IMG/VR virus record: IMGVR_UViG_3300029953_000001
From: a virus
Reading direction: 5' to 3' (one strand)
DNA length: 64,000 nt
Part shown: positions 37,314 through 61,695 of the stretch, piece by piece
Layout of the letters: every line of letters begins with the position of its first letter
How positions within the stretch are numbered: position 1 is the stretch's first letter
The notes under the pieces: generated by a model
Told to the model about the DNA's origin: nothing
What the model saw: only the letters and a program-made list of their open reading frames with translations
Database searches by the model: none
Position numbers and translations under genes: made by a program

Positions 37314-37826
37314 CTACTTGGCAGAGCGAGAAGCTGCGGCAATGGCGGCGATACGGGCTGCGGGAATATCCTGAAGGCACGCCGCCGTCTGTGTCAGTTG
37401 GATAGCGTAGTTGGCCTCCCACGTCCCCGGCTCGACCAGAGCCTCGTACTCAAGATAGAACTCATCGTCAACGTCAACCTCTTCATCATCGTCCTCGTGC
37501 CCATACTCAGGGTCGAGATACATGGCGTCGGGTTCGACCATGAAGCCGTGGTTTCCGGCGAGACCCGGCAGGTCACCCGCCAGCTTGAGACCGGACACGT
37601 TCACCTTGAGCAGCACACTGGTCTCGTCGTGGTATGCGTCGGGCTTGATGCTCAGGTAGATGGGGTTGCAGCCGTACTTCTCGTGAGCCCACGTGCCAGC
37701 CTCAGTGAAGTTGACCTCGCTGTTTATCTTGAGCCCGTCCCGCAAGATGGCTTCAACTCGCGTCTTGTCCGTGGCGTGGTACATGATTCGCGGCTGGAGG
37801 AACTTACTCTGAAACTTCATACACAA
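37314..37826 (-). CDS. standalone ART-fold (ADP-ribosyltransferase-like) protein
   Basis: H-motif MYHATDKTRVEAILRDGLK. The block NPIYLSIKPD matches the PVYLAIKKP / PVWLSIKNP / PVYLSIKNP blocks of the ART domains in the giant proteins. Acidic C-terminus. Confidence 0.5.
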   Translation of the reverse strand: MCMKFQSKFLQPRIMYHATDKTRVEAILRDGLKINSEVNFTEAGTWAHEKYGCNPIYLSIKPDAYHDETSVLLKVNVSGLKLAGDLPGLAGNHGFMVEPDAMYLDPEYGHEDDDEEVDVDDEFYLEYEALVEPGTWEANYAIQLTQTAACLQDIPAARIAAIAAASRSAK

Positions 37827-38514
37827 CCTCGCTTGCAGGTTTGAGAATCAACTCATGGTAAAGCTTGTGGTTGACGGGTGGCTCAGGGCCGATGTAAACC
37901 GTTCGAGCCAAACGCATACGAGCCTCATGAATGAATCCGGCAGCGGGGAAAACGGTGCCTGATGTTCCAATGACAATCATCAGCGTGACCTTATCCAGTT
38001 CGGAGTCGATGCGATTCAACTCCAGCGGGGTCTCCTCGAAGAACACAATGTGGGGCCGGAGCAGAGCACCACACCACAGGCAGCGGTTCACATCTTGCAA
38101 GCTATCGTACAGAACCTTGTCGGTTACTGGGGCGGAGCACCCATCGCTGCATCGAGCCTTAGCCAACTCCCCATGCATGTGAATCATCCGCTGAGAACCA
38201 GCACGGTCGTGGAGGTCGTCCACGTTCTGCGTGCAGAGGAAGAAGCGGTCGCCCATCTTCTTCTCCAATTCAGCTAAAGCGTAGTGGGCAGGGTTAGGCA
38301 TAGCCAGAGCCGCTTCCCGGCGACGAGAGGAGTAGAAGTTCCACACCTTCCATGGGTCTCGTTCCCATGCCCCCGGTGTGCATACGTCCTCAAGCTTCTC
38401 TGTATTCCACGTCCCATCCTTGCTGCGAAACGCTGGGAGCCCACTCTCGACGCTGATACCAGCCCCGGTCAACACGAACACGTAGTCATTGGGAGATACT
38501 TTTACAGATTCCAT
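37804..38514 (-). CDS. SIR2-family NAD-dependent deacylase (sirtuin)
   Basis: GAGISVESGLPAFRS...FFLCTQNVDDLHDRAG...HMHGEL...CxxC...CxxC are classic sirtuin motifs. Start trimmed to ATG (MESVKV) at 38512-38514. Confidence 0.7.
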   Translation of the reverse strand: MESVKVSPNDYVFVLTGAGISVESGLPAFRSKDGTWNTEKLEDVCTPGAWERDPWKVWNFYSSRRREAALAMPNPAHYALAELEKKMGDRFFLCTQNVDDLHDRAGSQRMIHMHGELAKARCSDGCSAPVTDKVLYDSLQDVNRCLWCGALLRPHIVFFEETPLELNRIDSELDKVTLMIVIGTSGTVFPAAGFIHEARMRLARTVYIGPEPPVNHKLYHELILKPASEVVYEVSE

Positions 38515-38550
38515 CTTGCCATTATACAGCAACGGTGTTCTGCACTTCCA
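38515..38550 (-). promoter_or_regulatory. minus-strand promoter: GTGCAGAAC box + perfect TATAAT located 6 nt before the sirtuin ATG (leaderless)
   Basis: Minus-strand read: gtGCAGAACaccgttgctgTATAATggcaagATG. Confidence 0.45.
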
Positions 38551-38705
38551 CCTGTCCCATGGAGAACACGATGTACTCGGTCGAAGCCTGACCTGAGCCC
38601 TTACCATCGCGGATGTTATGGATGACAGCCCCATCATTACCGGTCATGTGGGCTAGTTTAGCGAGTGTGTCGGCGTCTATGGTCTGGTCTTCATAGCCAT
38701 TGAAA

Positions 38706-41288
38706 TTAAGCCCACTGAACCATCTGTTCAGGGGAGACGGCGGAGGTCTTGCCCTTGGTCAACCCCGTGCATCCACACTCAGCCGCGTTACGGCAGCTAC
38801 CATCTGGATTGTGAGCGGGGGTTGGGCACTGACATGTACCGCAGCGTTCCATGGGAGGCTTCGGTGTGCGGTCGGAGGTCTTCCCTGTGGCAAGCTCCCA
38901 GAACTTACGCAGGTCGTTGTCCGAGTTGATATACTCGTCCAGCACGTCACCATAGTGACGAGCGTAGGCAAGGGCCTCATCTATAGGCATTACCTTGACC
39001 ACCCGTGCTCCAGCCGGGTTCTCCACCCAGAACTCATTACCGAATCCACGACCCACCTGACCGTAGTTCTCGCGGGGTACCTGACTGAAGTCAATCAGGG
39101 CAGCGTAGGGGCGACTATTGCTGCGATTATCATCATGGTCGAAGTTGTAGTAACCGTCCCAGTGTTCCAGATGGGAAGTCACCATAAGGGCTCCCTTGGT
39201 CATCTGGTTGTCGGCCATGCTCGACATATCCCTTGGCCCCTTCTCCGGGTCAATGAAGAAGTTAGGGTCGGTGGTCACATGCCAGTAGTCCCCGTGCTTG
39301 ATGTCGTGGCTGAAATCCTTCTTGAACTCCTCGAAGGTGTCGCACTTCCTCGCCTCTGCCGCCAGCGGTTCAAGCTCCTGTGGAATCTTGGTCATAGGTT
39401 TGCGGCCAGCTACCTTGGTCTTATTGAGGTCGATTACATGTCGGCTCATCTTGTCATCGAAGTAAATCTTGTAGCGAGTCCGCAGACGTGCCCATGCCTT
39501 GTACGCATCCTTGGACATGCAACTGGCTGTATCCGAGTAGAAGCGAACGCACCCTCTCGCCTTTGCTATTTGAATCGCCCGGTCGTAGAGCTTCTGACCG
39601 ATACCCTGCCCCTGATAGTGTTTAGCTACCAATATCCCACGAACGAAGGCGACCTTGTATCCCCGCCCCCTTTTAACCTCGTCGCCCAGCATGATTTCAA
39701 TGGTGCCAACGTTTTCTCCGTCTATCCCTGCCTCGATGCGTACACCCGGTAGCGATGTACCTTCGAAAGAACTCTGCTCAGGGCTGATGTCACGCTCAGA
39801 CAACTCAATAGGTGCGGAGGGCTCATCGGCTCCGGTCTTCATCTGAATAACTTCAGCAGGGATTTCAGACCACCCCAGTTTCTTAGCAGCGAAGTAGCGG
39901 TGATGACCGTCTTCAATGTAATAGGCACCGTCTCCATAGTCGATGACGGTTATAGGTTCACGCAGTCCTTCCTTAGCCATAGACTGAGCGACGTGAGCTA
40001 TAATCCGTTCGTCTTGGTCTTCTCCCGCAGGAACAATCTTGTCCATGGGAATCATTACCGGCTGCATAGCAGCGGTCACACTCATGCTCTTCGGGTCAAA
40101 CTTACTGTTGCCGATAGCTGACTTGATTTGGTTCGGGAACCACGCGACGTAGTGAGTTTCATCGCCAACTTCGGCAATGATGCCATCGTATCCAGCCGCC
40201 TTACGCACAGCCTCGTTGAACTCCTTCACACTGTGACGATAGAAGTCATTAGCAAGGGTGAACAACTGGTACATGATGTCGGCGTTCCCATAGAGGCTTA
40301 CGGCCTGATTGATGACAGCGTTCTTCCCTTCAGAGTCCACATCACCAAAGTTCGTGAGAGCGTCGTCAAGCTCAGGAGACGCCATGATGATACGACGCAC
40401 CAGGGCAGTCGTCAGGTCAGGAGCCGACGCCTTATCGTTCGTGAAGTAGATTGGCTTCTTTATCGCCAGATAGACGGGCATGACGTTGCCGGCATCGCTC
40501 TGGTTTCGGCTGGTCGCGTAACCGGACGCGGTGTCCTTGTTGTTGGTGAAGTAAAAGCCGGAGCCTAGCTGGTCGTTACCCTGACCGGTGAACTCGTAGC
40601 TGAACTCCTTGATGTCAGCACCGGTGCCGTGATAGACACGCAGAGGACGGCCATGGTCATCGACCACCTTACTGCCCTTGAACCATGACATGAACGCGGG
40701 GTTCTCGGTAATGTCTCCGGGCTGGCTCATGAAGCTCTGGTCTTGCGTGGGAGCGGCTGCAATCTTGGCTCGTCCGTCATCCACCACCTGTATAGCCGCT
40801 GGGTTGAAGACGATATACTCAATTCCGCGATACGGGGACTCCTTGATTACACCGTCCGCCTCGCTCTGAAGGTTCAGGTAAGCGGAGATGACTCTTGATT
40901 TTTCGTCAAGGGCTCCATCCACATCTTCCGCGTGCTGCTCTGCCACTCGCCTATCCGTTGTGAAATACACACCCTTCGGATTCCCCGGAGCACCGCGAGG
41001 ATGTTGGGGTTCAAACTCATCGAAGTCCTTACGTGTCCCGTGATAAACCAGAACCGGCTGAGCACTCGCAGTCTTCGTACCATGCTTCTTCTGCATGTAC
41101 TCCAACGCCTTAGCTTCATTCTCAGCGTGGTCTTTACGGAACTTCTCAATCTCCTCGGGGTTGTGCAGCCATGCGTTGTCCGGGTTGTCCCAGTCCTGTT
41201 CGAGGTAACGCACCACGTCCATCCACGGTTCGTGAATGGCAAGAATCTGCGACGTGGGGATACTTCCCCGTGAGCCTAAGTTCCCCAT
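38706..41288 (-). CDS. polyvalent protein (860 aa): 2x ART-PolyVal-like + ParB-like nuclease + GNAT + Cys-rich tail
   Basis: Contains VLVYHGTRKDFDEF...GVYFT and FMSWFKGSKVVDDHGRPLRVYHGT...GFYFT...PVYLAIKKP...FPNQIKSAIGNS. ParB core: DGHHRYFAAKKLGWSEIPAEV. GNAT: HYQGQGIGQKLYDRAIQIAKARG. Confidence 0.75.
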   Translation of the reverse strand: MGNLGSRGSIPTSQILAIHEPWMDVVRYLEQDWDNPDNAWLHNPEEIEKFRKDHAENEAKALEYMQKKHGTKTASAQPVLVYHGTRKDFDEFEPQHPRGAPGNPKGVYFTTDRRVAEQHAEDVDGALDEKSRVISAYLNLQSEADGVIKESPYRGIEYIVFNPAAIQVVDDGRAKIAAAPTQDQSFMSQPGDITENPAFMSWFKGSKVVDDHGRPLRVYHGTGADIKEFSYEFTGQGNDQLGSGFYFTNNKDTASGYATSRNQSDAGNVMPVYLAIKKPIYFTNDKASAPDLTTALVRRIIMASPELDDALTNFGDVDSEGKNAVINQAVSLYGNADIMYQLFTLANDFYRHSVKEFNEAVRKAAGYDGIIAEVGDETHYVAWFPNQIKSAIGNSKFDPKSMSVTAAMQPVMIPMDKIVPAGEDQDERIIAHVAQSMAKEGLREPITVIDYGDGAYYIEDGHHRYFAAKKLGWSEIPAEVIQMKTGADEPSAPIELSERDISPEQSSFEGTSLPGVRIEAGIDGENVGTIEIMLGDEVKRGRGYKVAFVRGILVAKHYQGQGIGQKLYDRAIQIAKARGCVRFYSDTASCMSKDAYKAWARLRTRYKIYFDDKMSRHVIDLNKTKVAGRKPMTKIPQELEPLAAEARKCDTFEEFKKDFSHDIKHGDYWHVTTDPNFFIDPEKGPRDMSSMADNQMTKGALMVTSHLEHWDGYYNFDHDDNRSNSRPYAALIDFSQVPRENYGQVGRGFGNEFWVENPAGARVVKVMPIDEALAYARHYGDVLDEYINSDNDLRKFWELATGKTSDRTPKPPMERCGTCQCPTPAHNPDGSCRNAAECGCTGLTKGKTSAVSPEQMVQWA

Positions 41289-41884
41289 TGTACCCCCCGA
41301 TGGGTAAGGATGTGGTTTAGGTGGGTGTAAAATGCCACTTGTGATAATTCTCTTTTCATATAGTTACATACCTTACAGCATGAGACACAGTTTGCGTGCG
41401 TATACCCTATGCCACTATCTACTCGGTCTATACCACCATGTGTATACCGCCCGTGGTTTTTACCCTGTTCTTGATATGGAGGAACCCCACAATAATAGCA
41501 ATCACCTGTAGTAAGTAAATCGAAATCACTATTTGACAACTCCCATGGTAACCCCCGTTTACTGGCACATTTTTGATAGTCAGCTAGGACAGAATTCCTA
41601 CCTGCTCTGCCCGGAGCTAGTCTCCTTGCCTTTCCGTTTATAACGGCTTTCTCCCGACCTATGCACCCACAACTAAGACTTATAGCTGCGTTTAAAGAAT
41701 GAGCTTCTACAACTCGCTCGGTTCCACACTCACAATGGCAGAGCCACTGTAGCATAGTCTTCCCATCTTTTAGCCTTGTCGATTCGACCTGTCTAACAAC
41801 ATACCATCGCCCAACTTTACGTCCAGTTAAATCAATTGCCCTTGGCATACTACCCTCCGTATAAGGAGGGCGTAGTTGTTTCAT
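41276..41884 (-). CDS. HNH (His-Me finger) endonuclease; homing-endonuclease-like insertion between the polyvalent genes
   Basis: WLCHCECG...LSCGCIGR Zn-binding cluster and CYYCGVPP...HGGIDRVDSGIGY...NCVSCCKVCNYMK. Its 3' end overlaps the start of the 860-aa gene. Confidence 0.55.
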   Translation of the reverse strand: MKQLRPPYTEGSMPRAIDLTGRKVGRWYVVRQVESTRLKDGKTMLQWLCHCECGTERVVEAHSLNAAISLSCGCIGREKAVINGKARRLAPGRAGRNSVLADYQKCASKRGLPWELSNSDFDLLTTGDCYYCGVPPYQEQGKNHGRYTHGGIDRVDSGIGYTHANCVSCCKVCNYMKRELSQVAFYTHLNHILTHRGVQWGT

Positions 41885-41907
41885 TCACTACCGGAAATAA
41901 CCATTCA

Positions 41908-42414
41908 CTAACCAATAATGACGTGATGGTAACCTTTAGCCCACTCATCCAACATCTCTTGGCTAATCTCGTCCATCTTCTCGTACTGCCCTGTAGCCTC
42001 ATTCTTCTTATACTTGTCTGGGTAATCGGCTCTGTGGCTAATCTGGTCAACCGTAGCCCAAAACTCCACATATGGATGGTTACGCAAATCAGAAGTCGAA
42101 GGCTGACGGGTGGACGCCCAGATACCAGCGGACGGCCCTGTACCGCTCAGGTCATCTCCACGTGCCTTACTGGCATCCAGACCACTCGCACGAATGCTGT
42201 CCAAGTTCTCGGGCCGGGTGTAGTGCCACAGCCGTACCGTCCTCGGAGGGATGGGCTGAGAACCGGGGGCAGGGGGAACCTGTCCCTTCGGTTGAGGGTT
42301 GGCGGTCTTGGGCATGGTGAAACTTTCAACCTCAGTGAGGGCCGACTGTAGGTTACCGAGAGATGCTCCTTCCCAGTCAACATATTCGCCTTCCTCTTCA
42401 TCGAGGCTAACCAT
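41908..42414 (-). CDS. small ART-fold protein (DarT/PARP-like H-motif)
   Basis: RLWHYTRPENLDSIRASGLD resembles the NAD-binding H-motif of ART-fold enzymes. Acidic N-terminus. Confidence 0.35.
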   Translation of the reverse strand: MVSLDEEEGEYVDWEGASLGNLQSALTEVESFTMPKTANPQPKGQVPPAPGSQPIPPRTVRLWHYTRPENLDSIRASGLDASKARGDDLSGTGPSAGIWASTRQPSTSDLRNHPYVEFWATVDQISHRADYPDKYKKNEATGQYEKMDEISQEMLDEWAKGYHHVIIG

Positions 42415-42468
42415 GAATTCGTTCCACTCGCCCGTCGTGAGCTTAGACCACTTCTCCTGCCACCAAAT

Positions 42469-45400
42469 CTAAATATGCTGGGGTGGGATGGGTTGGGTCG
42501 TCCAATATTCACCGTTGCCGACCTCTACCTTGATTTCTGGGGGTAGCATAATACGCAAGCAAAGGGGAATACCTGAACGTCCAGTATTCTGCACCCGTTC
42601 TCCAAAAAGAATCCGGGCATAGAACATTGCGTCCTTAGGGGTGTCGGCAAGAAATACCTTACCTATGGATGTATTTCCTAAATCACCCCCCCATTGTGGC
42701 TCCTTCGACGGAAGCAATCCCTGCGTTGCAATACGATTCAACCGTTTGGATGACGTGGCATGATAGTAAGTCCTCGTCATCGCCGCCGCCTTCCGCACCA
42801 TGTAACCCAGAGCCGGGTCGTGGCCTTCCTCTTCCTCGAAGCCGTGTGACTTGTACCAGTCCTTCAGCTTGTCGCCGGAGATTCGGTCGCCTTCACCGTA
42901 GGGTGAGGCTGTGAGTTCTACGGTGACGCCGTGCTGGTCTGCGATGTTGATAATACGCTTGAGCACGATGGAGCCAACGCCGGAATTGGGTTCAACCGAA
43001 CGGATGCCACGCAGACGTAGACGACCCTCACGCTCATCCACTTCAAAGAAGAGAGCGGGTTTGCCCTGAGCGAAGAAGACACGCTCCTTCGGGTTCTCGG
43101 GGTTAGCCGGGAACTTCTGGTAGATGGCTTCAAGTGCAGGTTGTAGTCTGATGTCAGGCACATCAGTCGAACCTTCCTTGCTCATTGGGACTTGGATGTC
43201 ACGATTCGGGTTGGGCTCAGGCTCTCCCAATTGCGGAAACACGACTGAACCCTTCAACCAATTAGTCGTGTTTGTCTGAGGGTCTTCTCCCACAAAATTC
43301 AACTTGGGGTACTTGCCCACCACGCTCGTGATGTTATATGTACGACCATCGAGTTCTACCTGACGACCAACGTACTGCGAACGCCACCACAGGTCATTAT
43401 TCTTCACCGTCTCAGGGTCGAACTTATTCCAGAACGCAGTGGCTTCATCGGACAGGCAGTTCTCCGTGGGCATGAGCCTCCAGCCGCGACCGGCACACCA
43501 CTCCTTAGCGACGGTGTAAAGTTTTTGAGCTACACCTTTGCGACGGTACATGGGTTTGACATAGGACTTCCAGACGTGCGTCTCCTTGCGTTCCTTCTCT
43601 TCATCAGTGAGGCCGCTTGGAAACACAGTGACGTAGCCAATACGACGCTTGCCGATGTAAGCACAGAACGTGCCTGAGCCGTAACTGTCCTCTCGCACTT
43701 CAACCCGGTTGATGTCGAACGCACCCTTCTTACCCCTTCCATGTTCCCATGATTGGTCTACGTCCAAGTTCCCCGACATGATGACGGGCGCGGTGTCCCA
43801 CAGCTTCTGCCACTTCACAGCCATGTCACCCCAACGCAGGAACGCAGAGTCCCAGCCAACGCCAATCTTCTTGGTCTTGAAGTCGGTGTCGTTCGTCTTG
43901 ACGACTTTCCACGGGTCGGTCATTCGCTTCTCAAGCTGAGCCTTCTGAAGCGGAGTCATGGAGGCCGACCATGCGAAGTATCGCATATTGTGAGCGTCAC
44001 GCAAGCATACGAAGAATTCCTTGTTCGGGTCTGGTGCCTTGGGTGCCTTTGCTCCGGGCACAGCCACCGGCGTGCCTTCGTCCCATAGTTTCTGTAGCTG
44101 AGCCTTCATCTCCTCCCCTTGAGGATATGCCCAACCTTGTCCAATCGGCGTTCCCCGCTTCAGGTAGTTATCGTCGGTGGTGAGGAACAGCTTACCCGCA
44201 CCCGCGTTCACCTGAGACTCGGCACGGTTTCTCTGCTTCGGTGATAGCTTTACCGAAGTCGCATAGGTGAGGTTTCCCCTGAACATATTTGTAACTAAAA
44301 CATAGAATTGCTTGGTGTTTTCATCCTGAACGTAAGACTCATCCGACTTAGGTGTGATGAAGTTGGCACCAAATTCCGCGTTGAATACAGCAGCACGCTT
44401 CAGCCACTCTTCGCCATGACCGAAGTCAGAGTGGGCCTTCTGAAGAAGCCGTGCAGTTCGAGGATTCAGGAGTTTCCAATACGTCAGGTTCCAGTCGTGA
44501 TGGCACAGTTCATGAGCAACCACCCGGCGAAGGGTATTGTCGTCGTTGATGATAGACTTCTGAATCTTAATGACCGTGTTGTTTACATCCAATAAAGGAG
44601 TGTACTCGCAACGACCCAACCACCGCTTCTTCAATGTGTTGACGACTTGAATTACGGGAAGGGGAAGACCGGGAGCTATGTACTTCATGTACTCCTTGAC
44701 GATAGCCATCACCTTGGCCTCGTCGTCAGCGACCTTCGCTATCTTCGGCAGATTGTACATCTCCGACGTAACAGCGGAGGCCGGAACCTTCTCCACCTTC
44801 AGCACGGCCTTGGGATTGAACACGACAACCCACTGCTCATTCTGAAACCCCATAGACGGGCTCTCGCTGGCGGCGTCAACGTTGTGGTCTTGCAGGAATT
44901 GAAGCAGGGCCTTCCCCTTAGCACCAGCACCAGCCTCATAGTTGACCACGAGATTGATGAGAGTGCTGGCCGTGAACATATCCTTATTCATGCGAGTGCA
45001 GTTGGCACGCAAGTCAGCGGCAATATCCTTGCCCTTACCGCCTAGCCGCTTCATTGCGAACTGGATACCCTCCGCCAGAGGGATGAGCACGTCATCGGCA
45101 AAGTTGAGGTTATCCTTCACAGTGACGAGGAATGTGGAGCCGCCACCCTTGGCATACTTGCACGCACGCTGGTAGCTGGTGGTCAGGTAGAGACCCGGTC
45201 CCGCCTCATAGCGTCCCTTGGTTGGTGCTTGAATGTCGATAGGGCCGGTGATGCGTCCACCATGCCAGAGCTTGCGGAAGCCTGTACCTTCTTGAGCCGC
45301 CTTCTTTATCATGGCAGCAGGAATCTTGTCCTTGATGTAAATCTCATCAGGCTCGAAGTTGTTGTCGTAAATGCGAGTACCAGCAGGTATTGTCACAGCA

Positions 45401-47286
45401 AGCACTACACTATCCCCACTCACATAGTGGGCACAGGTGTCTTCGGTTCCAAGAAATAGCTTGGGCTCCTTACCGCTGCGTACGGTATAACGTCCGCGAG
45501 GTTCCAGACCCTTCTTGAAGATGCCATTGATTCGGTCTGGTGTGGTGGCGTGATGCAACGTCGTGGGCTGCTTCAGCACTGCCGAGTCCACTCCATTTAT
45601 GTTCTCAATATCCAAGCCCTGCTCTTCTACAATAACCTTGAACAGGTGGGAGTATTCCTCGTTCTCGTAGTCCTTATACAGGTAGGCTTCCTTTGGCTCC
45701 AGCAAGGACATCTGACGAGGGTCGTGCTTGGCGACGAATAGCCGCTCTTCCTCCGTCTGTTTCTTCCATGGCTTCTTGAGGATTTGCTTCAGGCGTGCTT
45801 CTACATCCGGGTCGGCGGTCGCGGTGTGCATTTTCCCACTCTTGACCAACTTTAAACGCTCAGGTGGAATCGTCTGCCATACAACCCACCACGAGTCGCC
45901 CTCATACTCGGGGTTGTCCGCAATGTCTGTGGTCTCGTCAGGTTCTACATCATAACCCGTCAGGTCAGCTTCCCACACATCGGTGTACCTGCTCTCTTGG
46001 GTGAGCTTAGTGTGGAAAAATATACCATCGTGAGCGGCCAGTGCAAACTCAGTGGACAGACCATGCTTCATGATGCTCTCTCGGTTCATCACATCGGAAT
46101 CATGATAATAATGCACGTCAGTAGACGCAACGACCACGCTGGGTGCCTTGATGGGCTTCATGCTCATCTCTTCAGGAGTCAAAGCACGGTCTAGCTGGCA
46201 GAACACTGAGGGTCTAAAAGAGTCCATAGGTACCCAGCATTCAAAGCACACAAGCTTACCAGCCTTCAGTCCACGGTCTCGCCCAGCCTGATGCAAAGCA
46301 GTCTCAGCGTCGGTCGCGAGGTACGAGTCTTGACGCAGACCTTCCTTCTCAATGATGAGGGCAGTGGGTTTCGGAGTCGCATGATACAGTCGTGCCCGTC
46401 CTTGAGCGTCGGTGGGGAGACCACTTCGTTCCACCCAATTCTGGGTGCGTGCCAGACGGTCTTCGGGGGTGCGGTCTTGCCAGTAGACGAACTCTTCGCG
46501 TGCGGCGATAATGCTGTTCGTATCGCTGTATGTCCCTGAATTGCGTGTGGCCGACTTGATTTGCGTTGGGCTGAACACCACGAAGATGTCACTCTCCACC
46601 GGGCCATCGAACACACCCTTCGCAATGATGCCATCATGACCCCCCTTACGGGCAGCATCGAACTCCTGAGCACGGGGAACCACGTTAACGACTAAAGGGT
46701 TCTGAATCTTGAGGTAGGCGGCGGTGACGAATGTGTCCAGATTCAAGGAAGCGTTGTAGAGCCGTGCTTCCTTGGTGGCTTCTTCCTTAGCCATCTCATA
46801 GGTGGGGAACGGCCCCACATCAAAGATGTGCTCCGTCTCCCCGTCCTCGCTCTCAGCGACAGCGGCGACGGCAGCATAGTATTCGCCGGGGCGACCATAG
46901 GCTATTGGGTTGTCCTCGTCCGCTTCGAACTTGTCCTTGTAGTTGGCGAACCACGTTGCATTATCACGCTCAGACGTGAACCAGATAGCCCCATCCTTCG
47001 CCTTGCTGACGCAACCAGTTCCCTCACACTGGAGGTCGAAGCTGGTGAGCCATGGAGAACGGCTACCGTGATAAACGACGCGAGGAGTCCAGTCCTCGTT
47101 AACAACTTGGGACTTGCCGAACCACGATTTGAACGCGGGGGTCATCTGCACCGGGGGAACGGCACCCGGAGCTTGGAGTTCGTCGGCTGGCACAGCAGCG
47201 ACTACCGCTTTTGTTTCAGCGATTTCGGCTGCGGTCATGCTCCGAGTACCCTTGCAGGTTTGGGGGTCAAGCAGTTGATTCTTCAT
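42469..47286 (-). CDS. polyvalent protein (1605 aa): several ART-like H-motif domains + SprT-like Zn-peptidase + GNATs
   Basis: PAFKSWFGKSQVVNE...RVVYHGS; further H-motifs RLYHATPKP, LHHATTPDRINGIFKKGL and the C-terminal YYHATSSKRLNRIATQGL. Metallopeptidase: VVAHELCHHDW...GHGEEW. GNAT: YRRKGVAQKLYTVAKEW. Confidence 0.75.
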   Translation of the reverse strand: MKNQLLDPQTCKGTRSMTAAEIAETKAVVAAVPADELQAPGAVPPVQMTPAFKSWFGKSQVVNEDWTPRVVYHGSRSPWLTSFDLQCEGTGCVSKAKDGAIWFTSERDNATWFANYKDKFEADEDNPIAYGRPGEYYAAVAAVAESEDGETEHIFDVGPFPTYEMAKEEATKEARLYNASLNLDTFVTAAYLKIQNPLVVNVVPRAQEFDAARKGGHDGIIAKGVFDGPVESDIFVVFSPTQIKSATRNSGTYSDTNSIIAAREEFVYWQDRTPEDRLARTQNWVERSGLPTDAQGRARLYHATPKPTALIIEKEGLRQDSYLATDAETALHQAGRDRGLKAGKLVCFECWVPMDSFRPSVFCQLDRALTPEEMSMKPIKAPSVVVASTDVHYYHDSDVMNRESIMKHGLSTEFALAAHDGIFFHTKLTQESRYTDVWEADLTGYDVEPDETTDIADNPEYEGDSWWVVWQTIPPERLKLVKSGKMHTATADPDVEARLKQILKKPWKKQTEEERLFVAKHDPRQMSLLEPKEAYLYKDYENEEYSHLFKVIVEEQGLDIENINGVDSAVLKQPTTLHHATTPDRINGIFKKGLEPRGRYTVRSGKEPKLFLGTEDTCAHYVSGDSVVLAVTIPAGTRIYDNNFEPDEIYIKDKIPAAMIKKAAQEGTGFRKLWHGGRITGPIDIQAPTKGRYEAGPGLYLTTSYQRACKYAKGGGSTFLVTVKDNLNFADDVLIPLAEGIQFAMKRLGGKGKDIAADLRANCTRMNKDMFTASTLINLVVNYEAGAGAKGKALLQFLQDHNVDAASESPSMGFQNEQWVVVFNPKAVLKVEKVPASAVTSEMYNLPKIAKVADDEAKVMAIVKEYMKYIAPGLPLPVIQVVNTLKKRWLGRCEYTPLLDVNNTVIKIQKSIINDDNTLRRVVAHELCHHDWNLTYWKLLNPRTARLLQKAHSDFGHGEEWLKRAAVFNAEFGANFITPKSDESYVQDENTKQFYVLVTNMFRGNLTYATSVKLSPKQRNRAESQVNAGAGKLFLTTDDNYLKRGTPIGQGWAYPQGEEMKAQLQKLWDEGTPVAVPGAKAPKAPDPNKEFFVCLRDAHNMRYFAWSASMTPLQKAQLEKRMTDPWKVVKTNDTDFKTKKIGVGWDSAFLRWGDMAVKWQKLWDTAPVIMSGNLDVDQSWEHGRGKKGAFDINRVEVREDSYGSGTFCAYIGKRRIGYVTVFPSGLTDEEKERKETHVWKSYVKPMYRRKGVAQKLYTVAKEWCAGRGWRLMPTENCLSDEATAFWNKFDPETVKNNDLWWRSQYVGRQVELDGRTYNITSVVGKYPKLNFVGEDPQTNTTNWLKGSVVFPQLGEPEPNPNRDIQVPMSKEGSTDVPDIRLQPALEAIYQKFPANPENPKERVFFAQGKPALFFEVDEREGRLRLRGIRSVEPNSGVGSIVLKRIINIADQHGVTVELTASPYGEGDRISGDKLKDWYKSHGFEEEEGHDPALGYMVRKAAAMTRTYYHATSSKRLNRIATQGLLPSKEPQWGGDLGNTSIGKVFLADTPKDAMFYARILFGERVQNTGRSGIPLCLRIMLPPEIKVEVGNGEYWTTQPIPPQHI

Positions 47287-47313
47287 ACCTATCTCTGTAA
47301 TAGGGTTGGAAAG

Positions 47314-50300
47314 TTATTGAGTCGCGTCGAACTCCTGACGCAACTTCGCCATCAAGTTTTGATCATTCGTCACGTCTACTCGCGTGTAGCCACGGTCGTT
47401 GAAGTAGTCGATGAACTCCTGAGTCAGTATCGGCTCCGGGTGCTCCACGCCATCCACCGTGATTTTGTCTGGTGAGAATACAGCTAAGGTGTCAAACTCC
47501 CCCCTGGTCTCCACCATCCATACACCGTCGAATCCGGCTTTCCGAATATAACGAACAAGGGGTTCAATATAGTCATAACCTGCATCTTCAAGGTCATCAA
47601 TAACCTGTTCCCGAGACTTGAAATATCCTGTTACCGAGTCCAGTTTATCCCCCATGCTATCCAGTAGAATCTGCTGATGCTTCGGGTCACGTGGGTTGAA
47701 TACGTTGTCGCAATCCACTGTGCATTCGTATACGTGGGGTACAGGATTATCCAAAGCAAAGGACTCAGCCAATGATTTGTTCGGTGTGAAGAAAATCAAA
47801 CCATGGTCATTCCATTTCGATTCAAACTCCTTAATCGCATACCCGGTGCCGTGATACATACTAGGGTAAGCAGCGGCGGTCTTCATCTCCCCGACAATAC
47901 GAACCTGATTCGGTTTGAACAGGATGACATCGAACGTCCCGTCTGGGTCTGGCAGGACAACGCTATCGAAACCGTCACGCTTCAACTCTCCAATGGACTT
48001 ATTCTCGTACTCCGCCCAGCCAGCCGGGTTCTGTACGTTGATGTAGCAGCCAAGAATACACTTGCTGGAGTTCGCTCCGGCCTCTCCCTTTTCAATACTG
48101 GCTTTGTCGGATGCAACCCAGAACAATCCTTGGGCACCGTGACTCATATTCACGCGAGTGAAGGGCTCGCGGGTGCCATGGTACACCATCTGGGGCACCT
48201 TGGAGTCGGGGAACGGCTTCGCTGCCGCTTCCTTACCGAACGGGCGGTCAGGTTGAGCCCACAGTGACTTACCCGCTGGCGTCTGCTCGGTGGATGGGAT
48301 GACGGTGTATCCGGTCTGACGTTCTGCATAGACGTACATCGCTGTCGCCAGCCCCTGACGATGATAGGTTGCGGTGATGTCGAGGGACATGGGGTCAAGC
48401 TTCTTGTCCTCACGCTTGGCGAAAGTGACGTAGCCGAGGGGGGTTCCATCCTTCAATGCACGCACGGTGACCATCGGCGTACCAATGTACGACTTGCCGT
48501 GTTCAATCGTTAGCTGGAAATCCTTATACCGTCCATCAGGAGAAACGGCAACCGGGCCGGAGGCGGTCTTCTTTCGTAAATCTAGCTTATAGGGTGAGAC
48601 CATGGGGTATCGCTTGCTCAATTTCTCCCATGCTTTATAAGCATCGGGGGACATCCTCCAGTCTAGGTCGGAGATGAGGTACCTGCGCTTCTGCTTCCGG
48701 GATTCCACAATAAGACGGTCGTACAACATTTGACCTAGACCCGTGCCCTTCCATTCATCTCGGATGATGGCTTTCTTGACTCGCACGGAATCCCACTTGT
48801 CGGCATCGTCTGAACTCAGCCTTCCTGTAGAGTCATAAGCACTCGCCTCCAGAAACCCCGGTGGTGTAGCGTGGGGGTTAGCTTCAGGGTCTCGTGCGTT
48901 GATATCAATTGTAAAGTCCGTGGCTAGTACACTCCACTTTAACTTGGCGAGGTCAGCTTCGCGGTCATTGAATTTGGAGTAACCAAAGTCAGGGCTGGCG
49001 GTCTTCTCCTTGTATTTTTTGAAATCAGAAGGGAGCCACACGATTTTCCAGTGTCTCTCGTACTTGCCCGTCAACTCACACTTCGACTCACCCGGCTTCT
49101 CCACGTGATCGCACACAGTTTCAGCGACCGGTTTCTTGTCGAAGGTGAAGATGATCTTCTCTCCCTTGAGCACGCGAGGACGAGTGCGGAACGCCCAAAA
49201 CTCCCACTGCCCCTCAGGAACCGGCGACCAGAAGTGGTCACGTGCCGACTTAGGCACTTCGATGTAGAAAGCGTAAGGGCCGGTGTAGTTAGCGGCGGCG
49301 GTCTTCACCGGGTCTGTACCTTCCAACTTAATCTGCGATGTATCCCATACCATGTAATGCTTGGTGCCGGGATTGAACTTCAATCCACGACGACGGAACA
49401 CCGAACTCGGTGTCATGATGATGCCGTCAAAGCCCAGAGCACGATACACGTCAGCTACGAACTGTCCGGGCTTACTGATGTTTAACCCCCATACTTCCAG
49501 ACGCTTTGCACCTTCCTCGAACTCCAGTGCGGAGAACGTGGTCTTCTGAATCACGCTGTTGATGAGCACGTCGTATATCTGCTCGACCCATTTCACCTGA
49601 TGCTTCGTCGCGACTGACTCAAGAGCTTGCTTGAACGTCTCGTCCGCTGTGAACGTTGTGCCGCCGCGACTGACCTTCACCGGCTTGTTCAACTCGATGC
49701 GGACACGCTTGATGCTGGGCTCGTTGCCTACAATCTCTTTCTTGGCTTCAGCAAAAGCATCGGCCAGAGCTTCCTTGTACTCCTCGGAAACCTCTCCCTC
49801 TTCTCCATCATGGTCATACTTCATCATCGCAAGGTCGTCTTTGTCATACCATTCATTGAGAATCTTGTCGCGAAGAATCTCAAGGCGACCAGCGAGGTCG
49901 TCGTTGTCCGGGTTGGCATACTGCTTAGCCTCGGTGTAGTCACTGGTGAAGAAGAACGCCTTGCCGTACCAACTGGACTCAGACGCATGTTCGAGCGAGA
50001 ACGCTTCGAACCCCTGTGTCGTCCCATGGAACACATCGGAAATCTGTGCCGCCGACTTCATCGGCGAGGGAATCCAGAAGTCCACCTTCTGCTCGTTGGG
50101 GACTACTCCCTTGCGGAAGTGCAGGATTTCAGACCAGCCTTGGTGATAGGTCTTGCCATCTTGAGGCTCAGCAGCCTCTTCCGGCGACACGTTCGACTGG
50201 CCGAAATGCGTCCACCCAAGTTCTGTGAATGCCTGAATGATACTGTCCCTCGCCACTGCTTGCGTAGTAAGTAAGTCGATGTCATGGAAAGACTCTCCAC

Positions 50301-53300
50301 GTTGTTCGACGCCCCCCACCAGCTTGGTGGAGATGCCCTTGCTTTGCAAATCGCCAATCAACGCCTGAGCGTCTTCCTGTGTGTGCAGGGTAGAGGTCTT
50401 GTTCCACTCGGCATCGCGTAGCTCAATAAACCGCTTGATTTGGTCAGGCCCGACCGGATAGGCGTCGATAATCTGAGACGCGGGGATAGGACTCATGGTC
50501 TTTATCCACTGTCCACGATTACCCCCCTGAGACATCGGGTCGTTATAATCCACTTCCCACTCTTCCTCACCCGGCTTGAAGCGGACGATGGAAATCTTGC
50601 CGCTGCCGGTCTTCTTGTTCAACTCCCAGTCCATACGACCAGCCCAACGGAGAGCATCGAACTCCTCAGTCATGGCGTAGACTTCTCCCTCACCATAACG
50701 CGCACCGCTCTCAGCGACAGCCCAGTTGGATGGCTTGAACCGTTGCAGACCGTTCTTCTTTATCTTAGCCACGTTGGTGGTCTTGGTAACGTGATACAGC
50801 ACTTCGTTGTATCCTTCGCCGGAGGCGGTCATCGCAAGGTCAGGGTACTCACGGTCGAGAAACTCCCTCTGCCAGTGATTGAACTGGTCACGAAGGTGCT
50901 GCTCTTCCGAGATGCCCGACCGCTGCCTGTCCATCTTCTCCGCAAGCTCAGGGTAAAGCTCACGCATGGCAATTTCAGTCTCATCCCGAGTCGGCTTGCG
51001 GTCGGCGACCTTTTCACGCTCCATGATGTCCAACGCAGCCGCGAGGTTTTCCTTGTAGCTGTCAGAGATAACCTTGCACGCAGGGCATGAACCGTTGTAG
51101 GACTCCAAGTCCTCAAAGCGAACACGGTTGCAGTTCTTCTCGTGGGTCATTGCCGCCATCTTGTTCAGGGGCTCCACGCTACGCTCCATTACAGGGAGAC
51201 CCTGTTCGGTGGTTGTGACTACATTGAACCCCAACCGCTCATACCAAGTCTGGAGGTCGAATCCCTCAACCTGTTCACCATCCACCGTTGCCAGCAGGAT
51301 AATGGAGTTCGCTCCATGGGCACGTGCAGCGTCAATGAACTGAGCGACGAGTTGCTTACCCAAGCCCGTACCCCGCTTATCGAGGTCAACACCGACTGAG
51401 CCTAAGGATGCCCAAGGCTCTGCTTCAGACAGCATCATTTCAAGTTCTTCCGGGTCTTCCATCTGAACAGCTTCAGCCCAGCTACGCAGTTCGTCGTAAT
51501 CGTCAAGGATGCGTCCACGCACATAGCCGCCATCAACCTTGATGTCTATCTGGTCGTAGGATGCCAGCTTGGCCGTCTTTACCAACGGTATAAACTTGGA
51601 GTCCCCGGTCACCCCGCCCAATTCTACTGGATACTCCTTAGCCAAGCGATTCCAGATGATAGCGGCGTCCTGCGTCTGAGGGATTCCCTGATATAGTTTG
51701 ACGGCTCCCTTCTTCTGTGCCAGCTTGATGGCTTCCTTGTACAGGAGCAGACCGATGCCACGTTCTCTGAACTCAGCCAGTACCTCGACACCACTAACAA
51801 AGAAGGCTACCTCTTCATCCTTCTGATTGCGAACATGATACGGAGAGAGATTGATGAAGCCTATTCTCTCATCTCCAAGATACGCATCATCGAGGTAGGC
51901 ACTGATGAGAAACCCATAACGAGGGGAACCTGCCACTCTGAAGGTGATGCCTTCTGGTGTGGGGTATTTGGCCGCTGTCTTAGTGTCTGTGGACGCATCG
52001 AATGTATCCACGCGAAGGATGGCGTCAACCGGGATGCCCACACCATACTCAGTGCTGTAGTTGTGAGAGCCGAAGTTTTCGAAAAGCTCAGGGCACTTGC
52101 TGCGGTCAACAACTACCACAGCGTACTGGTCAGTCGGCTTTATATCAACCCGGTTGTTTGTGCTCCGCATCATCACACGAGCAAAATCACGGGCCACACT
52201 TGGGCTAGTGGAGAGATGCACAGTATCGTCGCTCCCCGGCGTGATACCCTGCTGCTCGATGAGACGGGCGTTGTCCACGGAGGTTCCGTGGTAAAGCAAC
52301 TGGGCTGAAGCCAGCTTGAACGTCTGAGCGGCAGTGACATCCTCACCGTTCATCCAGTTATACCAAGCGTCCTCACTCGCGTGGAGAAGGTTGGTGATGT
52401 CCACCACAGGAATCGTCTTGCGACCCACGCGGTGATACGCTTCCAAACGGTGGGCACCGTCAAGGAACTTTCCATCCGCCATGAGGATGGGGTCGAATTC
52501 AAAGCTGGGGTCTTGCTGAAGCATCGCGATGTACTTGGTAACGGCTGCTTCACTCACGGCCCTGTCCATTGTGGCATAAAGAGGCTCAACTGGAACGGAG
52601 CCAGCCTTCACCTTCGGCTCATCCGCGATACCGAAAAGGTTGTTGAATACGTCGGTCTCATCGTATCCCGCACGTTGCAGGAATTCCACGCGGTCGTAGA
52701 CCATATAGGCGATGTCGCCCTGTGTATCGCGAGGCAAGCTGTCGATACCTACGGGTTTGAGGCCAGCAGCGGTCAATGACTTGCGGTACCGCTTGCCTGT
52801 GTCGTAGTCATCTTCATACTTCTCATGAGTTACAGTCGGGTCGGTCTTGATACGCTTCTTCCAGATAGCCTTGGCTCCCGGCTTCAACGCATGGTCGGAG
52901 TACACCGCTTCGAAGCCTTCCTTCTTGGCATACTCGAAGAGATGGCGGTATAGTTCCGAACCAATTCCTTGGCGACGGTAATCCTTGTCCACGGTGATGA
53001 ATCCAATTTCAAGGGCCGAAGGGTCGTTCCAATCTATCTTGGCTGAAACCTGTCCAACCAACTTCAAATCGTGGTAAGCTTCGATGCGATACGAACCCTT
53101 AGCGTTCATCTCCTTATAGCGAGTCTTTGCCGCTGCGGTCTTTGGCTGCACCACACGAATCTGGTCAGGGTGGAACGCTATCCACGCTTCATTCCGGTAC
53201 TGGGCTCCATCGTATCCTTGAGCCTCAAGCTCCGCAGCAATCTCCTTGAAGTTGGGAACACTCGGACTGATGTGCATCGCGTGGAGGTCAGCCGGGTTGT

Positions 53301-54771
53301 TGATGGTCAGGATGGCCTCAATGATGTGACCATTCGGTAGACCCGCGATGATGTCCTCAGCATAGGACTTCTTGACAGTGAACATCGCAGGAGTGTCGAA
53401 CAGGTCGAAGTCGTGCGTCGTGCCATGGTAGGCACGCACGGTCTTAGCCGACGCTTCCTTAGCGTCGATTAGTATCTCGTCTGCAACCGAAGCTGTGATA
53501 CGCTTGTCGCTGGGGTCGTATGTACCCGCGTTGCCAACAGCACTCTTCACCTGATTCGGGCTGAATGCAACCCAGTCATCACGGTCAGCGTTGCCATCCG
53601 ACATGCTGTTGCGAATCACAAGACCATCATGACCCTCCGCTTCAAGATGCTTGCGGAAGTCTTGCCACGAGGGGTAAGAGCGACGGTCGTCCTGAAAGTG
53701 TTCGTACTCTTCAAACTCTGCGGGGTTCTTGATAGACAGCCAGACCGGCTTCACGTGGGCACCGGGCTTGTACTCGTCCCAGTTCTTACCCTGAGTGAAG
53801 CTCTCCGCTACGAACTCCGCATTGCCTTCGTCGTAGTTACCCTGATGCAGGGACTCGGTGGTGAACCATGAGCCCATGGCTCCGCCCCAGTCTGGGTTCT
53901 TGCCATCGGGCTTCGGGGTTGTATCGAACTCATCGAAGTCCTTGGTCGTACCGTGATAGGCACGCAGGGGGTTGCCCTTGGCGTCAACGACCTTCGAGCC
54001 GTTAAACCATGCCTTGAACGCGGGAGTGTTTGGAACCTGATAGGTGAACTCTTTCACAGGCTCAGGTGGGGGGTTGGCTGCTCTGTAAGCACGCCACAAC
54101 TCATTCAGTTCAGTTTCAAGCTCAGCGTTCTCCTGAACAAGGTTGGCAGCTTCCTCCAGCTTCGCCCGGTTATTGAGGTCTTTGAATCCCTCCCGGATAA
54201 TCTTCTGGTTGTCCTGCATCTTCTGAAGGATGACTTCCTGCTGCTCGGTGATGTTCGCATTCTTAGAAGCACACAACGGCTGAACGCTGTGCGGATTTTC
54301 CACAGGCTCGAAGAACCCAACTGGGCCATCAGAGTTTGCTTCTTGGTCGTGGGGTGTGGCGGTCTTATCGTCGGACGAAATCTTCCAGTCCGAACCGTAG
54401 TCCAGACGAATCACGATAGCAGGGATGGTCTTGAAGCCCATCTGCTCTGCCGCCGCAACGCGGTGGTGCCCATCCGACAGCTTGAAGGTCTTGCCATCGG
54501 TCGTGGTGACCAAAACAGCTTCAATCCACTTCTCACGGAGACCCTGTTTCATCTCCTCGACACGTTCGTTCTTGGTGTCCCGGCTGGACTGGGTGTGCTG
54601 AAGACGGTTGATGGGCACGTTTTCATCGGTTACAGAGCAGTCAGCCTTGTAACGGAACTCGTGTAGAATCTGCTTCTCACCGGATTTGTCGTACCCAATG
54701 GAGTACCCCTCGTATTCACCTTCACCGGGGCGGTCTTCAAATTGTTGGGTGCGCGTAGAAAGTTCTGCCAT
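47314..54771 (-). CDS. giant polyvalent protein (2485 aa): 2 ParB-like nucleases, at least 7 ART-PolyVal-like H-motifs, at least 5 GNAT modules, Pol-beta-type nucleotidyltransferase module
   Basis: ParB modules: DGHHRVAAAEQMGFKTIPAIV and FLDGAHRLEAYHRVGRKTIP. H-motifs: PAFKAWFNGSKVVDAKGNPLRAYHGT, RAYHGTTHDF, LLYHGTSVDN, VLYHVTKTTN, VFHGTTQGF, MVYHGTREPF and SMYHGTGYAI. GNATs: YRRQGIGSELYRHL, FRERGIGLLLYKEA, KRGTGLGKQLVAQF, WKGTGLGQMLYDRL and HRQGLATAMYVYA. NTase: LVGGVEQRGESFHDIDLL. Confidence 0.8.
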   Translation of the reverse strand: MAELSTRTQQFEDRPGEGEYEGYSIGYDKSGEKQILHEFRYKADCSVTDENVPINRLQHTQSSRDTKNERVEEMKQGLREKWIEAVLVTTTDGKTFKLSDGHHRVAAAEQMGFKTIPAIVIRLDYGSDWKISSDDKTATPHDQEANSDGPVGFFEPVENPHSVQPLCASKNANITEQQEVILQKMQDNQKIIREGFKDLNNRAKLEEAANLVQENAELETELNELWRAYRAANPPPEPVKEFTYQVPNTPAFKAWFNGSKVVDAKGNPLRAYHGTTKDFDEFDTTPKPDGKNPDWGGAMGSWFTTESLHQGNYDEGNAEFVAESFTQGKNWDEYKPGAHVKPVWLSIKNPAEFEEYEHFQDDRRSYPSWQDFRKHLEAEGHDGLVIRNSMSDGNADRDDWVAFSPNQVKSAVGNAGTYDPSDKRITASVADEILIDAKEASAKTVRAYHGTTHDFDLFDTPAMFTVKKSYAEDIIAGLPNGHIIEAILTINNPADLHAMHISPSVPNFKEIAAELEAQGYDGAQYRNEAWIAFHPDQIRVVQPKTAAAKTRYKEMNAKGSYRIEAYHDLKLVGQVSAKIDWNDPSALEIGFITVDKDYRRQGIGSELYRHLFEYAKKEGFEAVYSDHALKPGAKAIWKKRIKTDPTVTHEKYEDDYDTGKRYRKSLTAAGLKPVGIDSLPRDTQGDIAYMVYDRVEFLQRAGYDETDVFNNLFGIADEPKVKAGSVPVEPLYATMDRAVSEAAVTKYIAMLQQDPSFEFDPILMADGKFLDGAHRLEAYHRVGRKTIPVVDITNLLHASEDAWYNWMNGEDVTAAQTFKLASAQLLYHGTSVDNARLIEQQGITPGSDDTVHLSTSPSVARDFARVMMRSTNNRVDIKPTDQYAVVVVDRSKCPELFENFGSHNYSTEYGVGIPVDAILRVDTFDASTDTKTAAKYPTPEGITFRVAGSPRYGFLISAYLDDAYLGDERIGFINLSPYHVRNQKDEEVAFFVSGVEVLAEFRERGIGLLLYKEAIKLAQKKGAVKLYQGIPQTQDAAIIWNRLAKEYPVELGGVTGDSKFIPLVKTAKLASYDQIDIKVDGGYVRGRILDDYDELRSWAEAVQMEDPEELEMMLSEAEPWASLGSVGVDLDKRGTGLGKQLVAQFIDAARAHGANSIILLATVDGEQVEGFDLQTWYERLGFNVVTTTEQGLPVMERSVEPLNKMAAMTHEKNCNRVRFEDLESYNGSCPACKVISDSYKENLAAALDIMEREKVADRKPTRDETEIAMRELYPELAEKMDRQRSGISEEQHLRDQFNHWQREFLDREYPDLAMTASGEGYNEVLYHVTKTTNVAKIKKNGLQRFKPSNWAVAESGARYGEGEVYAMTEEFDALRWAGRMDWELNKKTGSGKISIVRFKPGEEEWEVDYNDPMSQGGNRGQWIKTMSPIPASQIIDAYPVGPDQIKRFIELRDAEWNKTSTLHTQEDAQALIGDLQSKGISTKLVGGVEQRGESFHDIDLLTTQAVARDSIIQAFTELGWTHFGQSNVSPEEAAEPQDGKTYHQGWSEILHFRKGVVPNEQKVDFWIPSPMKSAAQISDVFHGTTQGFEAFSLEHASESSWYGKAFFFTSDYTEAKQYANPDNDDLAGRLEILRDKILNEWYDKDDLAMMKYDHDGEEGEVSEEYKEALADAFAEAKKEIVGNEPSIKRVRIELNKPVKVSRGGTTFTADETFKQALESVATKHQVKWVEQIYDVLINSVIQKTTFSALEFEEGAKRLEVWGLNISKPGQFVADVYRALGFDGIIMTPSSVFRRRGLKFNPGTKHYMVWDTSQIKLEGTDPVKTAAANYTGPYAFYIEVPKSARDHFWSPVPEGQWEFWAFRTRPRVLKGEKIIFTFDKKPVAETVCDHVEKPGESKCELTGKYERHWKIVWLPSDFKKYKEKTASPDFGYSKFNDREADLAKLKWSVLATDFTIDINARDPEANPHATPPGFLEASAYDSTGRLSSDDADKWDSVRVKKAIIRDEWKGTGLGQMLYDRLIVESRKQKRRYLISDLDWRMSPDAYKAWEKLSKRYPMVSPYKLDLRKKTASGPVAVSPDGRYKDFQLTIEHGKSYIGTPMVTVRALKDGTPLGYVTFAKREDKKLDPMSLDITATYHRQGLATAMYVYAERQTGYTVIPSTEQTPAGKSLWAQPDRPFGKEAAAKPFPDSKVPQMVYHGTREPFTRVNMSHGAQGLFWVASDKASIEKGEAGANSSKCILGCYINVQNPAGWAEYENKSIGELKRDGFDSVVLPDPDGTFDVILFKPNQVRIVGEMKTAAAYPSMYHGTGYAIKEFESKWNDHGLIFFTPNKSLAESFALDNPVPHVYECTVDCDNVFNPRDPKHQQILLDSMGDKLDSVTGYFKSREQVIDDLEDAGYDYIEPLVRYIRKAGFDGVWMVETRGEFDTLAVFSPDKITVDGVEHPEPILTQEFIDYFNDRGYTRVDVTNDQNLMAKLRQEFDATQ

Positions 54772-54896
54772 ATTAATCCCTAATAATCAACTCGGTAGGT
54801 CAGTTTTGTGGAGTGACTTCCACGAAGTCCGGCCCGAGTTCAAGTTGTTCCTGAACCACCGGAATCTCCTTGGGCTTCGGTTGGGCCTTCTGGCTG

Positions 54897-61695: not shown

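Follow-up and report, generated by a model that had tools for sequence, protein, structure and literature searches.

The 64,000-nt stretch of viral DNA analyzed here (IMG/VR record IMGVR_UViG_3300029953_000001, hereafter the window) carries on its minus strand, at positions 38706-61695, five giant open reading frames (ORFs) of 825, 1442, 2485, 1605, and 860 amino acids (aa), with the sizes and coordinates given in a preliminary description of the locus. These genes, numbered 1 (59218..61695), 2 (54897..59225), 3 (47314..54771), 4 (42469..47286), and 5 (38706..41288), encode ~45 small modules on short linkers, about 7.2 thousand aa in total. The locus and 370 homologues served to build iterated hidden Markov models (HMMs), which, together with whole-protein and tiled Pfam scans and with hhalign in gene 4, gave the module map, and at least 5-14 modules were assigned per gene. 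The reiteration of modules across the five ORFs, noted before, was confirmed by self-BLAST and self-HMM searches. The array belongs to the known phage-type polyvalent proteins, of which it is a very rich case, and not to a new type of system: many unrelated catalytic domains occur per polypeptide, 2-15 or more being characteristic of these phage- or plasmid-encoded proteins, and the ADP-ribosyltransferase (ART), metallopeptidase, and ParB hub domains of that class, as well as GNAT beside ART, were all recovered, in support of the original assignment.

Ten modules were assigned to the ART-PolyVal family (PF18760). Two lie in gene 1 (61132-61650 and 60664-61143), five in gene 3 (53458-54045, 53077-53469, 49285-50067, 47866-48249, and 47440-47886), one in gene 4 (46465-47157), and two in gene 5 (40734-41132 and 40038-40721), with Pfam scores of 97.9 (gene 1), 167.6 (gene 3), 56.2 (gene 4), and 144 bits (gene 5) at a gathering score of 31.2 bits. 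The copy at 49285-50067 bears a large insert. The His of the YHGT strand, the Gly, and the Asp of xDGxx are invariant in all ten aligned modules. An H-Y-D active site, on strands 1, 2, and 5, is published for this family (PMC5512222), and the strand-2 Tyr was found in six of the ten, with W in two, I in one, and T in one; some copies may therefore be inactive. A divergent ART-PolyVal-like module was identified by hhalign in gene 4 (44722-45285, residues 668-855; 95%, 2e-8). With shallow alignments, hhalign comparisons of the regions without family match against the ART-PolyVal profile were negative, and deeper family alignments were required. The ART-PolyVal consensus had been said to recur in every gene, with AFK.WF as part of it. 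This could not be upheld: AFKxWF occurs only three times in the five genes, and gene 2 contains neither this motif nor YHGT, had no PF18760 match, and had no match at all in Pfam or PHROG and none in NCBIfam or the PDB sequences.

A second ART family, termed family B, is represented by two copies in gene 3 (51934-52341 and 50365-50841), three in gene 4 (45787-46155, 45208-45603, and 42472-42810), and one in a 168-aa ORF behind gene 4 (41920-42276), all found by HMM iteration. Its consensus reads YH[GA]T..N..I...GL ... vYLt...A ... pD ... iPp..Ik. A profile of 42 family B sequences matched Tpt1/KptA (2.9e-7) and, over near full length, DarT1 (2.4e-6) in the PDB; diphtheria and cholix toxins and PARP1 were matched in the same search. 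Some individual members matched PTS_2-RNA, PARP, DUF7002, and Arr in Pfam. Modelled with AlphaFold (pLDDT 81.5), residues 1303-1460 of gene 3 gave Tpt1/KptA structures as all of the top 15 Foldseek hits (probability 1.0); cholera, LT, and pertussis toxins, DarT, and Arr made up most of the hits behind these, and the credible matches were ART folds only. By profile and predicted fold, family B belongs to the ART superfamily. The Pfam cut-off of PTS_2-RNA was reached only through summed short matches around the YHGT strand, and the matches to Tpt1/KptA (PF01885) cover only positions ~90-147 of the 177 of that profile, the modules being 110-150 aa long. Judged by this coverage, family B modules are ART domains related to Tpt1 and not Tpt1 orthologues; they comprise the NAD-binding ART half without the N-terminal RNA-binding domain of Tpt1, and the locus differs from DarT in having no DarG-like antitoxin context. 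A short family B-like module was detected in gene 4 at 46147-46485 (hhalign of residues 268-380, 97%, 5e-11). When ten modules without family match were scanned against NCBIfam, the only hint was RNA 2'-phosphotransferase (0.032) at residues 268-378 of gene 4.

Ten ART-PolyVal and five family B modules give 15 robustly supported ARTs in four of the five genes, with one more family B copy in the 168-aa ORF. The proposed figure of at least 15 ART-type domains holds because the second, Tpt1/DarT-like family is included; it would fail if ART-PolyVal alone were counted. Comparison with HMMs of ART families, named beforehand as the check on the ART assignment, gave PF18760 in Pfam for the first family and PDB profile and Foldseek matches for the second. 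The density of ARTs, which had been called extreme, ranks with the highest known and does not exceed the known range, because comparable cases exist. Iyer, Burroughs, Anand, de Souza, and Aravind (2017, J Bacteriol; PMC5512222) described phage-type polyvalent proteins carrying as many as 12 ARTs each, the 12 copies being found in a Pseudomonas aeruginosa prophage protein (WP_023121221.1), and at least 10 ARTs are reported for Bacillus phage G (PMC9503650). Single metagenomic homologues carry up to 11 ART modules, the number present in P0031, P0121, and P0124, and the arrays of sister phages are of similar density. The multi-ART giants, proteins of 2-4 thousand aa, share tandem diverged ART-PolyVal modules with the array, but their ARTs lie in one polypeptide and belong mostly to one family, whereas several genes and mixed families are involved here.

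Gene 2, which begins with a TTG start codon, was resolved by profile comparison into the order M1 (58620-59186, residues 14-202), X (57873-58433), M3 (57501-57848), X (56967-57464), GNAT (56553-56813), M6 (55635-56342), and X (55017-55595). Across 45 related proteins module X is present 76 times, with the invariants P..R (FPLTVYR), G.yW[S/T/A]W, DW..T, and E.E, and the R and ExE are kept in all 76. In the AlphaFold model of gene 2 residues 1-460 (pLDDT 82), the first strand of the module bears the Arg, the second bears the YWS triplet and leads into a helix, and a later strand begins at the ExE. An R / S-T / ExE signature marks the clade of the cholera and pertussis toxins and of T4 Alt, the functional prototype of an ART delivered with DNA, to which no sequence similarity was detected; Alt also differs in being single-domain. 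The module X profile gave chance-level hits only in the PDB, and its hhalign comparison with either H-type ART family was not significant. Module X is absent from Pfam, NCBIfam, and PHROGs, and neither a tblastn search of 50,697 cultured phage genomes nor a pattern scan of IMG/VR returned anything. From its motifs and model, it is an uncatalogued family of probable R-S-ExE toxin-like ARTs.

M1, predicted with confidence to be an all-alpha domain, spans ~190 aa and has 759 representative hits below 1e-10, many of them standalone proteins of 185-350 aa, but no entry in Pfam, NCBIfam, or PHROGs. M6 carries an invariant HExxH (HEVTH in gene 2), its profile gave chance-level hits only in the PDB, and its standalone homologues match eCIS_core weakly (0.005); it is a candidate zincin. 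A relationship of M6 to the SprT-like module of gene 4 was considered and dropped, having no hhalign support. Just upstream of the HExxH, at ~56187-56243 (gene 2 residues 995-1013), the sequence LIKGVGVALLSGIVGVMAV forms a hydrophobic stretch that resembles a transmembrane segment, and standalone M6 homologues have an N-terminal hydrophobic stretch as in gene 2.

GNAT modules of the RimI type were found 11 times by Pfam tiles and HMMs, in line with the many reported: besides the copy in gene 2, two lie in gene 1 (60343-60627 and 59956-60219), five in gene 3 (52834-53106, 51625-51921, 51205-51492, 48601-48900, and 48232-48483), two in gene 4 (43402-43689 and 42817-43104), and one in gene 5 (39465-39758). 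In genes 1, 3, and 5 GNAT follows ART. Three modules of the ParB-like nuclease/NTPase type are present, two in gene 3 (54370-54633 and 52357-52611) and one in gene 5 (39807-40067). The DGHHR motif ascribed to them is found in the first and the last, the remaining copy having DGAHR; in tiled Pfam scans two ParB_N (PF02195) matches, of 27.4 and 28.1 bits, exceeded the cut-off of 26.3, and the third copy, the one with DGAHR, reached 99.8% in hhalign. Two metallopeptidases had also been proposed. One is the SprT-like module of gene 4 (43744-44751, HELCH), which scored 25.3 bits against a Pfam cut-off of 25.6 and whose homologues are annotated as PF10263 in precomputed data; the other, the HEVTH of gene 2, is the candidate zincin M6, with its invariant motif and weak eCIS_core match. 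A phmmer search of genes 2 and 4 against the PDB gave no match.

Several further modules have no family match, notably residues 1815-1933 of gene 3 (48973-49329) and the C-terminal modules of gene 1 (59221-59895) and gene 5 (38727-39443), the last with no match in NCBIfam. The gene 1 module contains YHGT and VSTS motifs, had no Pfam or NCBIfam match and chance-level PDB profile hits only, and aligned to family B by hhalign at 71% over 22 columns only. The Pol-beta nucleotidyltransferase proposed for the giant genes was rejected, as no NTP_transf or Polbeta match was obtained in the five genes in whole-protein and tiled Pfam scans with E up to 0.1. The only nearby one is a separate gene on the plus strand, a CCA-adding tRNA nucleotidyltransferase recognized by Pfam and PHROG (35312-36658).

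The five genes, described as consecutive, are co-directional but have two small minus-strand ORFs between the 1605- and 860-aa genes. Gene 4 ends at a TAG (42469-42471), behind which the 168-aa ORF continues in frame (TAG and ORF, 41908..42471). In sibling contigs gene 4 is 1792 aa long (protein P0023; gene calls in L005 and L006), and the TAG site is a Glu in P0023 (QHIEIWWQEK), the siblings' codon being GAG. Because the frame is the same, a single TAG intervenes, and the sibling reads Glu there, the 168-aa ORF is identified by comparison as the severed C-terminus of gene 4, and the in-frame TAG as a nonsense polymorphism or an assembly error. The ORF had been a plausible candidate for one of the standalone ART-fold proteins mentioned in the preliminary description, and to this extent that claim falls away. 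Recoding of the stop codon was rejected: TAG is an ordinary stop that ends 7 of the 32 ORFs of the window, and the siblings have GAG. The second small ORF, of 202 aa (41276..41884, minus strand), matched the PHROG categories endonuclease VII and HNH endonuclease (~1e-13), had no Pfam match, and shares 13 nt with gene 5. Its probable identity is that of a free-standing homing endonuclease which was inserted into the array.

The nonsense codon that splits gene 4, the inserted HNH endonuclease gene, the replacement of the strand-2 Tyr in four of the ten ART-PolyVal modules, and the large insert in one ART could together mean that many copies are decayed or dead, the array being in decay after duplication and shuffling, or a recombination reservoir, rather than a set of ~20 working enzymes. 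We consider this highly improbable, given that the His and Asp are kept in every ART-PolyVal module and the R and ExE in every X module, that all ORFs but one are intact over the full length of the array, and that the modules are conserved at 30-60% identity in distant relatives.

Genes 1-2, 2-3, and 3-4 are separated by -8, +125, and +27 nt, and the gaps after gene 4 are +54 nt to the 168-aa ORF, +23 to the 202-aa ORF, -13 to gene 5, and +68 to a SIR2-family gene (37804..38637, minus strand; Pfam SIR2, 1.1e-44; PHROG Sir2), whose presence agrees with the preliminary description. AT skew is negative only over ~36-62 kb, which fits a single minus-strand block. Scans for consensus promoters and terminators gave counts at chance level, with no terminator between the array genes, and it is plausible that the five co-directional genes form one transcription unit. 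The SIR2 gene may share it, being co-directional, 68 nt downstream of gene 5, and with no terminator-like site between. The strongest terminator-like hairpin of the region (34337-34356, minus strand; 8 pairs, 7 of them G-C) lies past the strand switch.

The phage nature of the window is indicated by PHROG and Pfam matches for tail-fibre-like collagen/CBM, head-decoration-like, RNA ligase, CCA-adding enzyme, and Sir2 proteins. The tail-fibre-like collagen/CBM5_12 gene (61781-62779) encodes 330-332 aa in the window and L006, and in the sibling contig L005 a 107-aa ORF stands in its place (6447-6770), a strain-level variation beside the array. The RNA ligase, which has an HNH-like N-terminus, is encoded at 22846-23871 on the plus strand. 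No tRNA genes were found in the window despite the RNA ligase and the CCA-adding enzyme. A 554-aa PARP-like protein (29919-31583, plus strand; 29-35% identity over 86% of its length) is, by homology, a further standalone ART outside the array; its homologues, annotated as poly(ADP-ribose) polymerase, come from the jumbo phages XacN1 and Xoo-sp13 and from Klebsiella phages.

Several of these features bear on whether part of the arsenal targets nucleic acids, with the Tpt1/DarT-like ARTs and ParB modules modifying or nicking DNA or RNA, either of the phage genome (anti-restriction) or of host DNA and tRNA, and with SIR2 and the RNA-repair genes following the same NAD+/RNA theme. Among solved structures, family B is nearest to Tpt1/KptA, which modify RNA/DNA, and to DarT1, which modifies ssDNA; three modules are ParB-like nucleases, and SIR2, RNA ligase, and CCA-adding enzyme genes all lie in the window. 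Family B, on the other hand, has no counterpart of the RNA-binding domain of Tpt1, and ART-PolyVal and RimI-like GNATs are predicted to modify proteins (PMC5512222). As an account of the array this appears quite improbable. Nucleic-acid targets are conceivable, given the Tpt1/DarT-like affinity of family B and the ParB modules.

The gene 2 protein was found unchanged on a 431,749-bp contig, and the genome that hosts the array is that of an uncultured phage of ~430 kb. Megablast of the locus against the 50,697 phage genomes gave no match, so that no near-identical cultured phage was recovered there. Related phages of 405-435 kb carry the same module set in shuffled order, in arrays of 1156 + 2161 + 3742 aa or of 2256 + 1951 + 332 + 813 aa. 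In the 405-kb relative L004, where three genes contain at least 12 ARTs, the same module families are ordered and partitioned differently, and modules therefore appear to be shuffled within a conserved locus. Directly upstream of the array, relatives encode an InPase (PF18823) and a small ORF, which is SprT-like (~105 aa) on L004. This conserved gene pair is located at 5501-6504 of L004 and at 1541-3003 of L005. In the window phage the pair of InPase and SprT-like genes lies further out, with three opposite-strand genes (486, 395, and 330 aa) between it and the array.

The five proteins contain 22 copies of a short motif, [KVIMLT]TA[ASG], where shuffled sequences gave 2.4 +/- 1.5, a nine-fold enrichment. 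Among 154 occurrences in 23 proteins of the clade, 71 lie ~10-15 residues or less from a domain end, and only 10 fall in domain cores, where 65.8 were expected (p = 5e-24). The motif is specific to this clade, whose members include P0115, P0117, P0118, and P0130. Cleavage of polyvalent proteins into units by a metallopeptidase has been proposed in the literature, and the distribution of the motif suggests [K/V]TA[A/S] as a candidate site of proteolytic processing. Taken to its full extent, this would make the five ORFs polyproteins that are cut at [K/V]TA[A/S] by built-in or neighbouring zincins into ~45 enzymes, with X as a new R-S-ExE ART family and three ART clades injected at once. We put this forward only tentatively and regard it as possible but doubtful.

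The interpretation that we favor, with moderate confidence and largely by analogy, is that the array encodes phage-type polyvalent effectors that are packaged in the head and co-injected for multi-target modification of the host. Following the published model and T4 Alt, whose packaging was demonstrated experimentally, the proteins would be made late, packaged in the head, and delivered with the DNA. Cleavage of the linkers, possibly at [K/V]TA[A/S] and possibly by the built-in metallopeptidases, would yield separate enzymes. These would use NAD+ and acetyl-CoA on many host proteins, and probably on nucleic acids, during the initial minutes of infection, with host takeover and blunted host defences as the outcome. 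The divergence of the module copies (25-35% identity), together with the shuffled order in sister phages, suggests that the arsenal is diversified, with a separate target for each copy.

We infer association with the head from the company that the modules keep. ART-PolyVal homologues are repeatedly fused to Phage_Mu_F (PF04233) or Phage_portal (PF04860) domains, the homologue gp321 of Tunturi_5 lies between a head-tail connector and a minor tail protein, and the array itself adjoins tail-fibre-like and head-decoration-like genes. These findings, with simultaneous delivery as the published rationale of polyvalency, also speak against the alternative that the same enzymes are not packaged but made in the infected cell for takeover or anti-defence, like T4 ModA/ModB and not Alt, the giant ORFs perhaps serving co-expression. 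Other observations weigh against packaging and fit that alternative. MuF, portal, and other known head-targeting domains were not found in the five proteins in Pfam scans. The structural-like genes that abut the array are encoded on the opposite strand, and its other flank, with the SIR2, CCA-adding enzyme, and PARP-like genes, is non-structural. In the cultured jumbo phages CBB and JA29, the standalone ART-PolyVal genes have tRNA and replication genes around them, and packaging cannot be assumed because of these non-structural neighbourhoods. Production in the infected cell without packaging seems rather unlikely to us on balance. Against the packaged and co-injected array also count the absence of any above-chance promoter or terminator signal delimiting an operon in the consensus scans, the loss of the strand-2 Tyr from some ART-PolyVal copies, and the role given to the junction motif, which is pure inference.

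Compared with published polyvalent proteins, the array shares the giant multidomain architecture in phages, the H-Y-D ART of the Tox-ART-HYD2 clade with RimI-like GNAT beside it, the DdrB/ParB-like nuclease, a probable zincin metallopeptidase, multiple ARTs per protein, and an InPase gene nearby. It differs in that its modules are spread over five adjacent genes, in that three ART clades, including the Tpt1/DarT-like family and the probable R-S-ExE-like module X, occur in one locus, in the lack of MuF, portal, SNF2, methylase, and RNAP modules, and in the recurrence of a clade-specific motif at module boundaries. The combination of three ART clades in one locus, the uncatalogued probable ART family, and the junction motif may be new.

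If the packaged and co-injected array is real, a single phage would hold ~20 diverged NAD+-using transferases and 11 acetyltransferases, possibly as an injected toolkit, and the locus would be a compact source of candidate takeover and anti-defence enzymes with distinct targets. The sister phages with their reordered parts represent a natural experiment in module shuffling. The modules X, M1, M3, and M6, and others without catalogue entry, are concrete targets for work on structure and function, and the junction motif may give a defined site for the long-standing idea that polyvalent proteins are cleaved into effectors.

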